Origin: a virus
Direction: 5' to 3' (one strand)
Virus record (IMG/VR): IMGVR_UViG_3300035666_000104
Length of the DNA: 33,088 bases
The notes below the pieces were generated by a model. That model had not been told where the DNA came from. It saw only the letters and a program-made list of their open reading frames with translations, and did not search any database. How positions within the stretch are numbered: the first letter of the stretch is position 1; every line of letters begins with the position of its first letter. Both the position numbers and the translations under genes were made by a program. Shown piece by piece: positions 23,539 to 28,588 of the stretch.

Positions 23539-23570
23539 CAAAGTTAATTATATTTTGCTAACTCAACAAA
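23539..23570 (-). promoter_or_regulatory. Bacteroidota-type promoter TTTG-N20-TAACTTTG
   Basis: Minus strand reads TTTGttgagttagcaaaatataatTAACTTTG, about 55 nt upstream of the ATG at 23483. Confidence 0.55.
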
Positions 23571-23846
23571 AAAATCGTTGTAATCTTCGAAAATTTCATC
23601 ATAGATATCTTGGAAAATTCCATCACCTCTTGGGTCTTGTTCCCATCTTTGGAGAATCCAAGATTTAATTCTGAGTTGAGAACGAAGTTCCATGTATAGG
23701 GATATCATATGAAATAAGGAAGTTGTGGATACATCACTCCATTCAGCATCCTTATCATCGTCAGATATAAGTCCTAAGAATTGATTCGTCATACCATCGA
23801 TGAACCATTTGTCTGCTTCAGAGAAGCGAGTGATAAATTCAGTCAT
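23544..23846 (-). CDS. Small highly acidic protein
   Basis: ORF track entry. By my count about 21 D/E against about 9 K/R in 100 aa. Confidence 0.7.
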   Translation of the reverse strand: MTEFITRFSEADKWFIDGMTNQFLGLISDDDKDAEWSDVSTTSLFHMISLYMELRSQLRIKSWILQRWEQDPRGDGIFQDIYDEIFEDYNDFFVELAKYN

Positions 23847-23864
23847 AGTTATAGTTTTTAATGA

Positions 23865-24038
23865 TTAAGAAAATAGACCTTGTAACATTCCGATGATAAA
23901 GGTAATGATGATACACCACTTCACAAAACCCCAAACCACATTGAATATTCCATCAATACCTGATGACCTCATAACTCTGTTTGCTCCTCTTGAACCAACA
24001 GTATGACCGAAACCTCTAACAATAGATTTGAATAACAT
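23865..24038 (-). CDS. Unlisted 57-aa membrane protein (MLFKSIVRGFGHTVGSRGANRVMRSSGIDGIFNVVWGFVKWCIIITFIIGMLQGLFS)
   Basis: Hand translation. It fills a 200-bp gap and has a C-terminal TM helix. It falls below the ORF-track size cutoff. Confidence 0.5.
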   Translation of the reverse strand: MLFKSIVRGFGHTVGSRGANRVMRSSGIDGIFNVVWGFVKWCIIITFIIGMLQGLFS

Positions 24039-24049
24039 AACGATTAATT

Positions 24050-24268
24050 TTAATTACCACCGTGGAGATGGCATTTTGAGTTACAAGATAGGGTTAAATT
24101 CTTACAACGAGAACCTGACTGAGTTGTCCCGACACATTGAACAGATACAGTTCTCTTACCATTACAAGGTTGAGTTGTAGTGGTTTGGTTAGATACTGGA
24201 AGGATGTCTGTTTTCTCACAAGACATAAGTGCAATTGAGGTGATTGCGACCAATAGGAATTTTTTCAT
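24050..24268 (-). CDS. Small lipoprotein with a Cys-rich C-terminus
   Basis: Signal peptide plus lipobox MKKFLLVAITSIALMSC. C-terminal QCVGTTQSGSRCKNLTLSCNSKCHLH. Confidence 0.7.
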   Translation of the reverse strand: MKKFLLVAITSIALMSCEKTDILPVSNQTTTTQPCNGKRTVSVQCVGTTQSGSRCKNLTLSCNSKCHLHGGN

Positions 24269-24285
24269 TGTTTCTTGATTTTATA

Positions 24286-24316
24286 CGAAGTTAGGAAATT
24301 ATTCTGATTCGGCAAA
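24286..24316 (-). promoter_or_regulatory. Early promoter cassette TTTG-N19-TAACTTCG
   Basis: Minus strand reads TTTGccgaatcagaataatttccTAACTTCGtataaaatcaagaaacaATG. Confidence 0.55.
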
Positions 24317-24451
24317 AAATTCTTGGTATTCTTTTTTTAATTTTCCCTGAGCCATAAGAGACCATAACAAACCAGAAATCTGTTCTTCATTGAGGATTTG
24401 TGCTAATGTCCAAACGCAGGTGTCTTCTGAACTAACGAGTAGTGTTTTCAT
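24299..24451 (-). CDS. Unlisted 50-aa ORF (MKTLLVSSEDTCVWTLAQILNEEQISGLLWSLMAQGKLKKEYQEFFAESE)
   Basis: Hand translation. It fills the gap between two listed genes. Confidence 0.45.
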   Translation of the reverse strand: MKTLLVSSEDTCVWTLAQILNEEQISGLLWSLMAQGKLKKEYQEFFAESE

Positions 24452-24456
24452 TCTTA

Positions 24457-24714
24457 TTAGTTTTTATCTGTGAAATAATCTTCTGTTGTAAATTCTGCCA
24501 TCATCGCAACCCCAACCAATGAGTAATAGGTCTTATCATCCCCAACCCAATCCACAAAACCTAACTCCTTAGTATCGAAATCAAGACGGATTTCATAATG
24601 ATGTTTACCATCATTCAAATACCATACAACCAAATTACCTTGTGTTGAACCAACACTGAATCCTGTGAAAGCGGAGATTCTTGAAATCATCCATACATCT
24701 AATTTGTTTTCCAT
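24457..24714 (-). CDS. Hypothetical early protein, paralogue of 26219..26467
   Basis: Shared SRIS..W.N..G...FVD...D.KTY......T..DYF..K pattern. Confidence 0.75.
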   Translation of the reverse strand: MENKLDVWMISRISAFTGFSVGSTQGNLVVWYLNDGKHHYEIRLDFDTKELGFVDWVGDDKTYYSLVGVAMMAEFTTEDYFTDKN

Positions 24715-24726
24715 TGTTTCTTAATT

Positions 24727-26741: not shown

Positions 26742-26754
26742 TTGTTTGTTTTTA

Positions 26755-26762
26755 CAAAGATA
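26755..26762 (-). promoter_or_regulatory. -7 box TATCTTTG upstream of 26741 (-33 element unclear)
   Basis: Minus strand reads TATCTTTGtaaaaacaaacaaATG. Confidence 0.4.
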
Positions 26763-26767
26763 ATAAA

Positions 26768-27040
26768 TTATAGTGAAACAACATGAAATATTTTTTTTCC
26801 AATCAGAATCATTTCTTGACCCATTGGTGTATCCAATGTTTGAATCTTTGGATTGATATACAGGTCACAAGAAACAGATATTGGATTGACTCCGATACCT
26901 GTCTTCTCACCATCCAATAAAAATTCTCGGAATGTATCTTTATTCACAAGATTGAAAAATAACTCTATATCCCAAATAACATAAATCTCTTGTTGATTAG
27001 GTAAAATAAAGGTTATTACTATTTCATATTTCCTGTCCAT
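26768..27040 (-). CDS. Hypothetical early protein (90 aa, start MDRKYEIV)
   Basis: The listed start at 27094 lies deep inside the GNAT gene. An internal ATG at 27040 gives a 17-nt overlap instead. Confidence 0.6.
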   Translation of the reverse strand: MDRKYEIVITFILPNQQEIYVIWDIELFFNLVNKDTFREFLLDGEKTGIGVNPISVSCDLYINPKIQTLDTPMGQEMILIGKKIFHVVSL

Positions 27041-27516
27041 TTTCTTCTTTTTTTGGAATGTATTCGAAGGTATAAGTTGTTCTATAACCTGCAAACCATC
27101 TTGTTTTAATCAAATCTTTTTCATAAGAATCCTTATTCTCTTTCTTGGATATAAAGGTCCAATTAGGATTTTTAGACCTTCTATAAATAAGAGATGGATG
27201 AGTTGTTGTACCTCTGAATCTTAATCCCTTATTGGTATAATATTTACCACAGAACTCAGATAGAATTGAACCAAGACCAAGTCCTTGAAATTGTGGAAGA
27301 ATAACCAATCTATGTTCCTTTCTCATATTCTTAACGGTAGGATGTGGGAAGTTCAAACACGCATTGAAACCACAAAGATGACCGTCAATGAACATAACGA
27401 ATTTTTCAGATGAGTTATTAATCCTATGACTTAGATAGTGATACTTTCCAAAAATATTCCAGAGTCCTTTATAAGTTGACTTATAGATTTCAATTCTGTG
27501 TTGGACTTTTTTTTTT
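27024..27516 (-). CDS. GNAT-family acetyltransferase domain, in the -1 frame relative to the ABC-ATPase ORF
   Basis: Motif A RLVILPQFQGLGLGS. The frame is open from the A10 tract, and the region upstream of the listed Met (VQHRIEIYKSTYKGLWNIFGKYHYLSHRINNSSEKFV) looks like coding sequence. Confidence 0.65.
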
Positions 27517-28111
27517 GAGGGATAACAAATTCCATTTTATTTGTATCGAATATCCAATCGGGATTCATAGATTCTACTATATCCTGATGGCAAGATATAC
27601 CAACAAATTTCTTTCCGAGTTTTCTAACCTTATTGGAGAATAATTCAGAACCATACTTTGCGGTAACACGGTCAACAACAGAAGTAAATTCATCATAAAC
27701 AATAAGGTCTTTATCCATCAATAAAGAATAACATAAATCTACTCTCATTTTCTCACCCATAGATAAAACTGAATATGGTTTCAACCAACTTGGTGGTGAA
27801 GAAAAACCAACTGATATGAGAGTTTGAATTATCTCATCAATAGTTTTATTCTTTGGGAAATCATCAATAACAGAGTTCTCAGAAAAAGACAAATCAGAAA
27901 CAATATCATCACCGAATAATTGTTTTGCGATTGTTGTTTTTCCTGTTCCTGAGTCACCGACAATGAGACCTACATTCCAATCGAAATCTAAGTCAATATC
28001 ACCGATAAAACTCTCAACGATTTTATCACCCTGTAAATCAAAATACTTGATAATCTGACCTACTCTCTCGGTCTTCTGATATTCGTGTTCTTTTACAATT
28101 TCAAATTTCAT
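27431..28111 (-). CDS. ABC-type ATPase (0-frame product, 226 aa)
   Basis: Walker A GDSGTGKTT, signature LSMGEKMR, Walker B LIVYDEFTS, H-loop SCHQD. Confidence 0.75.
   Translation of the reverse strand: MKFEIVKEHEYQKTERVGQIIKYFDLQGDKIVESFIGDIDLDFDWNVGLIVGDSGTGKTTIAKQLFGDDIVSDLSFSENSVIDDFPKNKTIDEIIQTLISVGFSSPPSWLKPYSVLSMGEKMRVDLCYSLLMDKDLIVYDEFTSVVDRVTAKYGSELFSNKVRKLGKKFVGISCHQDIVESMNPDWIFDTNKMEFVIPQKKKSNTELKSISQLIKDSGIFLESITI
27506..27517 (-). other. C-A10-G tract with the in-phase heptamer A AAA AAG: candidate -1 frameshift or slippage site
   Basis: The 0 frame reads CAA AAA AAA AAG. The -1 frame has a TAA stop 7 codons upstream and is then open to 27024. Confidence 0.6.
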
Positions 28112-28121
28112 AGTAAATTAT

Positions 28122-28367
28122 TTATTCGTTTGGAAAAATTTTATTAAAGTTTTCATCATCCGCTAACTTGAAGTATTCATCCATCTTATCAATCCAAGTT
28201 CTATCTCCTGTCTCTATGAAAGAATAGAACCTATCGAAGATTCTTACATACTGTTTCATAGAAATCTTTAACTGATGTGATTCAATAAGGGATTGTGTTG
28301 CTTTTAGTGCTGCTTGTCTCGCTATGACTATTGAAGAATAGTCCCTCAGGATTTGTGTGTTACTCAT
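28122..28367 (-). CDS. Hypothetical early protein (81 aa, start MSNTQ)
   Basis: The listed start at 28391 overlaps the unlisted upstream ORF. The ATG at 28367 follows that ORF's stop directly. Confidence 0.65.
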   Translation of the reverse strand: MSNTQILRDYSSIVIARQAALKATQSLIESHQLKISMKQYVRIFDRFYSFIETGDRTWIDKMDEYFKLADDENFNKIFPNE

Positions 28368-28368
28368 T

Positions 28369-28536
28369 TTAATAGTTTTTATAAAGGTCACATAAATGTT
28401 GTTCGTATGCTGCTCTTTCAGCTTCTTTTTTTTCTTCTAACCAAATCTCATAATCCATATCCAAGTCATCAGGATAAGATGTATCATCGAAGTCCAATTC
28501 GAAGATAGTGTCCAATAGTTTTTTTGTTTGTCCCAT
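28369..28536 (-). CDS. Unlisted 55-aa acidic ORF (MGQTKKLLDTIFELDFDDTSYPDDLDMDYEIWLEEKKEAERAAYEQHLCDLYKNY). First early gene.
   Basis: Hand translation. It lies directly downstream of the promoter at 28557-28588. Confidence 0.5.
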   Translation of the reverse strand: MGQTKKLLDTIFELDFDDTSYPDDLDMDYEIWLEEKKEAERAAYEQHLCDLYKNY

Positions 28537-28556
28537 AATGTGTTTTTTTTATACTA

Positions 28557-28588
28557 CAAAGATAGGTGAAGTAGAGTATAGTATCAAG
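28557..28588 (-). promoter_or_regulatory. Early-region promoter cTTG-N20-TATCTTTG
   Basis: Minus strand reads CTTGatactatactctacttcaccTATCTTTGtagtataaaaaaaacacattATG. Confidence 0.5.

Follow-up and report, generated by a model that had tools for sequence, protein, structure and literature searches.

What are the short repeated sequences that precede small genes in one part of an uncultured phage genome, and what do they do? The question was raised by IMGVR_UViG_3300035666_000104, a viral DNA of 33,088 nucleotides (nt) from IMG/VR, which was analysed over its full length and is referred to below as the window. A preliminary description had reported about ten near-identical promoter cassettes on its minus strand, one in front of almost every tiny early gene, with the promoter grammar of the Bacteroidota. 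When the ends were compared, the first 99 nt of the window (1-99) were identical to the last 99 nt (32990-33088). The window is therefore a complete genome, circular or terminally redundant, with 32,989 unique bases, and the motif counts given here are therefore whole-genome counts. The G+C content of the genome was 36%, and the minus strand carried every gene except the one at 22647-23003 (+). The cassettes were located in a region of 17 small genes, from 28536 down to 23052. We consider it likely that ten cassettes in this early block are promoters for the host primary sigma factor and that they double as crossover points.

An ATG followed the box at 13-55 nt in all ten cassettes (at 13-24 nt in nine), every one of them on the coding strand, and the coordinates in the preliminary description were all correct on the minus strand. 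The count of about ten was borne out, but only four cassettes were near-identical. The 17-mer CTAACTTCGTRTAAAAT had exactly four copies on the minus strand (box starts 25664, 25065, 24739 and 24293) and none on the plus strand, and when up to three mismatches were allowed there were 5 matches versus 0.42 expected. The four near-identical copies agreed at 28-36 of 41 positions, and the identity of 29 of 32 positions reported between 24269-24300 and 24715-24746 was exact. The box TA[AT]CTT[CT]G had 11 minus-strand copies, all in 23539-28564, a region that makes up 15% of the genome, and 4 plus-strand copies; this total of 15 compared with 5.9 in shuffles, and none of 100 shuffles reached it. Nine of the 11 minus-strand boxes preceded an ATG by 13-55 nt. 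The bipartite motif TTTG-N19-21-TAnnTT(T/C)G had seven copies on the coding strand and one on the opposite strand, whereas dinucleotide shuffles averaged 0.39 and never exceeded 3. TTTG was present 19-20 nt upstream of boxes 26497, 26194, 25065, 24739, 24293 and 23546, and CTTG 20 nt upstream of box 28564, with exactly the spacing claimed. One further cassette, absent from the preliminary description, consisted of TTTG-N19-TACCTTCG at 27065-27095, before the gene starting at 27040. Over the ten cassettes, the -33 element was therefore TTTG at N19-20 in seven and CTTG at N20 in one.

A position matrix trained only on 73 sites from relatives with no more than 66% identity in a conserved flanking protein was scanned over both strands of the whole genome. 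The ten cassettes were hits 1 to 10, seven of them scored above the highest shuffle score (16.3), and no site at a structural or packaging gene was near the cassette scores. The genome's best score was that of cassette 9. A -35/-10 reading of the cassettes was also tried: a sigma-70-type scan gave 43 sites versus 54.8 expected, so there was no enrichment and this reading was dropped.

The same pattern was found in 62 related loci, which were collected from IMG/VR via the conserved flanking protein. Sites with a box plus an ATG in these loci and the window numbered 119 on the coding strand and 20 on the opposite strand. Among the 98 unique family sites, TTTG was present at a spacing of 19 or 20 in 50, and the third-to-last box position was T in 68 and C in 30, giving the family consensus TTTG-N19/20-(cc)TA(a/t)CTT(T/C)G-T followed by an A-run. 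Every larger related contig had such sites clustered in a single region, five to nine of them, and the array thus belongs to an entire family of uncultured phages rather than to this genome alone.

The elements TTTG and TAnnTTTG are the published promoter consensus of the Bacteroidota primary sigma factor (Baez et al. 2019, PMC6847099). In Flavobacterium johnsoniae, T-12, A-11, T-8, T-7, T-6 and G-5 are nearly invariant, the box reads TAHHTTTG with no G at the two free positions, and transcription starts 4-5 nt past the box, with a mean leader of 33 nt (PMC6847099). In the cassettes, T, A, T, T and G of the -7 box were invariant, and the free positions were AC, TC or CC in all ten, again without G. 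The full TAnnTTTG was present in four of the ten boxes (28564, 26762, 26194 and 23546). As in Bacteroidota primary-sigma promoters, TTTG stood 19-20 nt upstream and the leaders were A-rich, without a Shine-Dalgarno sequence. The cassettes differed from the F. johnsoniae promoters in a more prominent -33 TTTG, in shorter predicted leaders, and in family-specific positions, namely cc before the box and T plus an A-run after it. By the 4-5 nt rule, leaders of 9-20 nt were predicted in nine cassettes and of 51 nt in cassette 23546.

A Bacteroidota host, as assigned in the preliminary description, was supported by three lines independent of the cassettes. No Shine-Dalgarno sequence was found before 39 starts, apart from one weak AAGG, and A was present at -13, -12 and -11 in 33, 32 and 29 of the 39 starts, respectively; start regions that are A-rich and lack Shine-Dalgarno sequences are a signature of the Bacteroidia (PMC6847099). 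The nearest terminase matches among isolated phages were Flavobacterium phages, with 33% identity, and the sole portal matches were phages of Nonlabens (Flavobacteriaceae). These affinities are distant, and the host assignment suggested by the sequence reaches the phylum, not the genus. Megablast of the region against isolated phages gave no match, and reference genomes, when scanned, yielded neither a terminase relative nor a prophage. An exact 18-mer was tried as host evidence in 185,579 genomes and was rejected, as only 11 hits were obtained, too few to use; five were in Bacteroidota, four of these in Sphingobacterium.

We propose that the cassettes would act as promoters of the Bacteroidota sigma-A type (-33 TTTG, -7 TAnnTTTG) for the host primary sigma factor, each fused to a short, A-rich translation start region without a Shine-Dalgarno sequence. 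The block of about 5 kb, with 17 small genes of unassigned function between the strong terminator at 28607-28630 and that at 23004-23032, presumably holds early or host-takeover genes. Transcription would start 4-5 nt past the box, as in F. johnsoniae, giving the leaders of about 9-20 nt in nine cassettes. The preliminary description had stated one promoter per gene; a cassette was present at only 10 of the 17 early genes, so this is not a one-promoter-per-gene architecture. The hairpins suggest two terminator-bounded units, from 28564 to 26524 and from 26497 to 23004, and since there is a single internal terminator (26524-26549), the transcripts of the block would form two nested sets, each with a common 3' end, and messages would become more abundant along each set. 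The cassettes and the other features of the block are shown in Table 1.

Table 1. Cassettes, leader element, terminators and isolated boxes of the early block; N, spacer length in nt.
Feature	Position (strand)	Elements	Matrix score or hairpin z	Remarks
Cassette 1	28537-28587 (-)	CTTG 28584-28587, N20, TATCTTTG 28557-28564, 20 nt to ATG 28536	12.3	Heads early block, directly after terminator
Cassette 2	27041-27095 (-)	TTTG 27092-27095, N19, TACCTTCG 27065-27072, 24 nt to ATG 27040	14.2	Homology block with relatives begins at 27062
Cassette 3	26742-26762 (-)	TATCTTTG 26755-26762, 13 nt to ATG 26741	24.4	No -33 TTTG
Cassette 4	26468-26520 (-)	TTTG 26517-26520, N19, TATCTTCG 26490-26497, 22 nt to ATG 26467	18.4	Directly after terminator
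Cassette 5	26173-26217 (-)	TTTG 26214-26217, N19, TAACTTTG 26187-26194, 14 nt to ATG 26172	28.2	
Cassette 6	25641-25664 (-)	ccTAACTTCGtgtaaaat, box 25657-25664, 16 nt to ATG 25640	11.1	No -33 TTTG; TAA of box is stop codon of upstream gene
Cassette 7	25042-25089 (-)	TTTG 25086-25089, N20, ccTAACTTCGtgtaaaat, box 25058-25065, 16 nt to ATG 25041	27.3	
Cassette 8	24715-24763 (-)	TTTG 24760-24763, N20, ccTAACTTCGtgtaaaat, box 24732-24739, 17 nt to ATG 24714	28.0	Contains end of upstream gene (PNFV*)
Cassette 9	24269-24316 (-)	TTTG 24313-24316, N19, ccTAACTTCGtataaaat, box 24286-24293, 17 nt to ATG 24268	30.2	
Cassette 10	23484-23570 (-)	TTTG 23567-23570, N20, TAACTTTG 23539-23546, 55-nt spacer to ATG 23483	16.3	Different class
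Leader element	23493-23518 (-)	ATCGGGGACAGGACACAATCTGAACA		Inside cassette 10; ends 9 nt before ATG
Degenerate cassette	25980-26008 (-)	ttccTAA, leader aaaatcaataaacaATG and ATG context kept		TTCG part of box gone; families D2 and D8
Intrinsic-terminator hairpin	28607-28630 (-)	Hairpin and T-run	-5.5	Immediately upstream of cassette 1
Intrinsic-terminator hairpin	26524-26549 (-)	Hairpin and T-run	-2.7	T-run provides -33 TTTG of cassette 4
Terminator hairpin	23004-23032 (-)	Hairpin		Closes early block
Isolated box	28500-28507 (-)	TATCTTCG		Inside first early gene; no -33 element; outside top matrix hits; probably a chance match, not a cassette
Isolated box	26096-26103 (-)	TATCTTCG		Inside gene 25999-26172; lacks a -33 element; probably matches by chance

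Because the cassettes recur as direct repeats of 25-45 nt, they would also act as crossover points, at which related phages would lose, gain or exchange single genes with their own expression signals. DNA on either side of the block was 80-94% identical to L018, L020, L022 and L023, four of the related loci, and the block itself was mosaic, with differing gene content. Gene-family maps showed ccTAACTTCGtgtaaaat before four different families in the window and before others in relatives, and comparison of the gene content between cassettes, which the preliminary description had called for, gave the same cassette before unrelated genes. The 189-amino-acid (aa) gene was 96% identical in L020 and stood there behind a different box; homology started at 25652, inside cassette 6. 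Between the window and L023, one gene was swapped for an unrelated one exactly between two cassettes. The alignment of L020 with L023 (A1) showed a 338-bp indel between two cassettes, L020 having cassette-gene-cassette and L023 a single cassette. This L023 cassette was a hybrid, its left half corresponding to the first L020 cassette and its right half to the second, with the crossover within TAACTTCGTnTAAAATTA. Edges of homology blocks were located within -35 to +40 of a box in 30 of 81 cases, compared with 13.6% for random positions. The cassettes are documented crossover sites and one route to shuffling, not preferred over other gene boundaries, and recombination through them may be the mechanism of gene exchange rather than a mere correlate. 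The paralogue pair 24457/26219, said to be flanked by cassettes, was real (36% identity, E=4e-13).

The preliminary description had likened the cassettes to the promoter early stem-loops (PeSLs) of T4, for which reports are confined to T4-like myoviruses (Comeau et al. 2014, PMC4122927). As with PeSLs, repeated early promoter motifs of the host-sigma type stood just upstream of small genes without assigned function and were concentrated in a hypervariable block of orphan genes (here all ten in 23.5-28.6 kb). The stop codon of the upstream gene and the start of the downstream gene were inside the cassette, in agreement with the overlaps noted previously. Indels and replacements between close relatives were bounded by cassettes, including the one indel that left a hybrid, the pattern left by PeSL-mediated deletion or insertion (Arbiol et al. 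2010, PMC2839356). The cassettes differed from PeSLs in having the Bacteroidota -33/-7 grammar instead of the sigma-70 -35/-10 grammar, in lacking a Shine-Dalgarno element, in their length of about 25-50 nt versus about 100, and in being located in a 33-kb genome that is not T4-like. A significant hairpin was found only at cassettes 1 and 4, where it was the preceding terminator, and the other eight cassettes folded no better than shuffles (z -1.1 to +1.1). The attenuator half of the PeSL was thus missing and, with a stem-loop at only two of ten, the cassettes are not PeSLs in the strict sense. The likeness held for early-type promoters and cassette-bounded exchange, and the cassettes appear to be a Bacteroidota analogue, without Shine-Dalgarno sequences, of the T4 PeSL cassettes.

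Gene-boundary mosaicism is general in tailed phages. Here too, essentially all homology breakpoints were located at gene boundaries and single genes were exchanged, the difference being that many boundaries bore a repeated regulatory cassette. The cassette would supply homology and keep each moved gene expressed.

Several observations weigh against promoters read by the host sigma factor or against cassettes as the driver of shuffling. Six of the ten boxes read TTCG, with C at -6, where F. johnsoniae has a nearly invariant T, and the same departure was seen in the 30 family sites with C; apart from this position, the cassettes followed the Bacteroidota grammar claimed earlier and were strand-specific. 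Four unrelated viral contigs had the exact TTCG 17-mer in front of genes in the sense direction, and therefore the TTCG form is not peculiar to this phage. The sequence tgtaaaat was conserved beyond what a promoter needs and box-to-ATG spacing was tight, both of which could reflect an RNA-level or factor-binding role. Two cassettes had no -33 TTG of any kind, and cassettes 27072, 28564 and 25664 scored 14.2, 12.3 and 11.1, respectively, inside the shuffle range. Cassette 1 was the weakest case, since its box was not kept even in a relative whose flanking protein was 98% identical; in relatives the proximal box read TATATTTT, some had a distal TAACTTTG instead, and what was conserved was TTGATAC-N17-TAT(C/A)TT. 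The cassette before the lipoprotein gene (24268; window 24255-24345) was intact in the window and L022 and decayed in three relatives (L018 7724-7822, L020 14060-14153 and L023 4008-4101), in which the box was TTACTTTG in one and TAACTTAG in two. Comparison of these sequences indicates that individual putative promoters are gained and lost rapidly, and since orthologous cassettes decay, individual promoters would be dispensable. A breakpoint was present at 8 of 10 cassette junctions in the window and at 6 of 7 cassette-free junctions; a preference of breakpoints for cassettes was tested and none was found. Since cassette-free junctions were broken as often, gene-boundary mosaicism here is independent of cassettes. 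The earlier idea of cassette-driven shuffling thus held for the cassette-bounded replacement and the 338-bp hybrid indel, and not as a preference.

Part of this evidence would fit an alternative that we regard as unlikely, in which the repeats are chiefly linkers or translation-start sequences, together with scars of recombination, and have hardly any promoter activity or none, each terminator-bounded unit having one promoter at its head. The constrained distance of box to ATG, the decay of orthologous boxes while the downstream gene stays, and the equally frequent recombination at cassette-free junctions are compatible with such repeats, as is the leader that recurs without a box at 25980-26008, where the leader and ATG context were kept and the box was gone, as had been described. 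They would have no need, however, of a TTTG 19-20 nt upstream, which is placed in the preceding gene or stop region in seven of ten cassettes and in about half of the 98 family sites, and the invariant positions are exactly the T, A, T, T and G of the -7 element.

It is also improbable that the cassettes are promoters needing a phage factor or a phage sigma factor of the extracytoplasmic function (ECF) type rather than the unmodified host sigma-A holoenzyme, in which case the block would be middle and not immediate-early. A candidate is encoded at 21076-21579 (-), a 167-aa protein with a weak end-to-end match to ECF-type sigma-70 models (TIGR02937, E=3e-5; Bacteroidetes ECF subfamily, E=1e-3), neither reaching its curated cut-off; a PDB sequence search with it gave nothing useful. 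The six boxes deviating from the host consensus at -6 and the extra conservation flanking the box (cc upstream, tgtaaaat downstream) would also fit a phage-specific factor. Yet the bipartite spacing and sequence fit the primary-sigma grammar and not the AAC-type -35 and CGT-type -10 usual for ECF factors, the 17-mer is also upstream of genes in the four unrelated viral contigs, and the sigma-like gene is downstream of the block and would need prior expression. The 167-aa protein may instead be a phage-encoded sigma factor for middle or late genes, and a model in which the host sigma factor reads the early array and the phage sigma factor the later genes would fit it. Finally, an effect of chance or of base composition in AT-rich intergenic DNA, which could appeal to the low G+C content and to the short pattern TAnnTTYG alone being near-equal on the two strands (24 vs 25), deserves virtually no credence and was refuted by the shuffle counts, the 17-mer expectation, the strand-specific clustering, the independent matrix that selected the same ten sites and the pattern kept across 62 loci.

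Besides its promoter-like elements, cassette 23546 carried a second repeated sequence. Its 55-nt spacer holds the leader element of Table 1, which has the form TCGGGGACAGG-N-CTGAACA-N9-ATG. In the family loci, TCGGGGACAGG-N-CTGAACA had 16 occurrences, all on the coding strand, and the element was also present at L013 4791, 5153 and 5419, in L129, L092 and L148, and in many others. Exact scans for TCGGGGACAGG-N3-8-CTGAACA gave 77 IMG/VR contigs, some of 65-335 kb, and the element was present in at least 119 metagenome contigs. An ATG followed 8-10 nt after the element in 66 of 75 unique low-GC instances, compared with 2 of 30 high-GC instances, which are chance matches. A TAnnTTTG box was usually located 22-36 nt upstream, and the genes downstream were diverse but recurrent. 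RNAalifold on 12 copies gave no structure and no covariation, an Rfam search of the leader region at E<=10 gave only noise and no family, and none of the isolated phages searched carried the element. A literature search found no description of the GGGGACAGG element. It appears to be an undescribed, widespread and positionally fixed motif of low-GC viral contigs, and it is worth a separate study.

The motif TTGAT(A/T)C-N16/17-TAT(A/C)(C/T)T was found at three minus-strand sites (28559-28587, 22602-22630 and 21846-21874), each heading a gene block and all kept in relatives. The latter two share TATACTTA and do not fit TAnnTTTG. These sites may be a second promoter class.

Identifiable genes in the genome were the large terminase (18800-19939), the small terminase, the portal (30706-31917) and an ATPase/acetyltransferase pair. 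No tRNA genes were found, and Rfam at the gathering threshold gave no match over the whole genome. In PHROGs, 14 of 16 scanned early genes had no match, the exceptions being the ATPase and acetyltransferase, and none of nine scanned early genes matched Pfam. The ATPase open reading frame (ORF) at 27431-28111 (-) and the acetyltransferase ORF at 27024-27395 (-) corresponded to the N-terminal and C-terminal portions, respectively, of a single 357-residue PHROG (phrog_11143). There was a poly-A run near 27510, within the stretch 27024-28111; the two-ORF split was also found in relatives L012-L014, so a sequencing error is not obvious.

Upstream of the early block, the gene at 28758-29237 (159 aa, -) was missing from the close relatives L018, L020, L022 and L023, whose homology skipped from 29270 to 28743, and a longer homologue (306 aa) was present in L026 and L027. 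The 220 nt of non-coding DNA that precede the block also hold a second inverted repeat, at 28653-28712 (-) upstream of the terminator hairpin; its arms, AAGTGAGGTGAG ... CTCACCTCACTT, enclose a loop of about 36 nt. The lone plus-strand gene at 22647-23003, divergent from gene 22564, encodes a 118-aa protein with CxxC...CxxC motifs and without a family match; the terminator 23004-23032, at which it ends, is shared with the early block. The end junction of the genome sits within a Thr/Pro-rich repetitive gene.

A literature search found no description of such promoter arrays in Bacteroidota phages. It is tentatively possible, at somewhat less than even chance, that the cassettes are portable expression modules, each a promoter plus a start without Shine-Dalgarno sequence, for trading single genes by cassette-to-cassette recombination, possibly via circular intermediates, in a large uncultured family of Bacteroidota phages. 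They would then be analogous to PeSLs and independently evolved on a different sigma grammar. On this reading, TCGGGGACAGG-N3-8-CTGAACA-N9-ATG, the leader element, would be a new signal for regulation in cis, either an enhancer or an operator acting on translation or transcription; it is common to many unrelated low-GC phages, contigs of more than 200 kb among them. The natural variants of the putative promoter and leader, roughly 100 in number and with the TTCG box among them, are candidate expression parts for Flavobacteriia or Bacteroides. The promoter grammar and the starts without Shine-Dalgarno sequences, agreeing with the protein affinities, offer a sequence-only route to assigning an uncultured phage family to the Bacteroidota. 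Within the limit set by the cassette-free junctions that also recombine, the idea of mobile regulatory cassettes driving modular shuffling would reach beyond T4-like coliphages and apply to small phages from a phylum whose transcription and translation signals differ.

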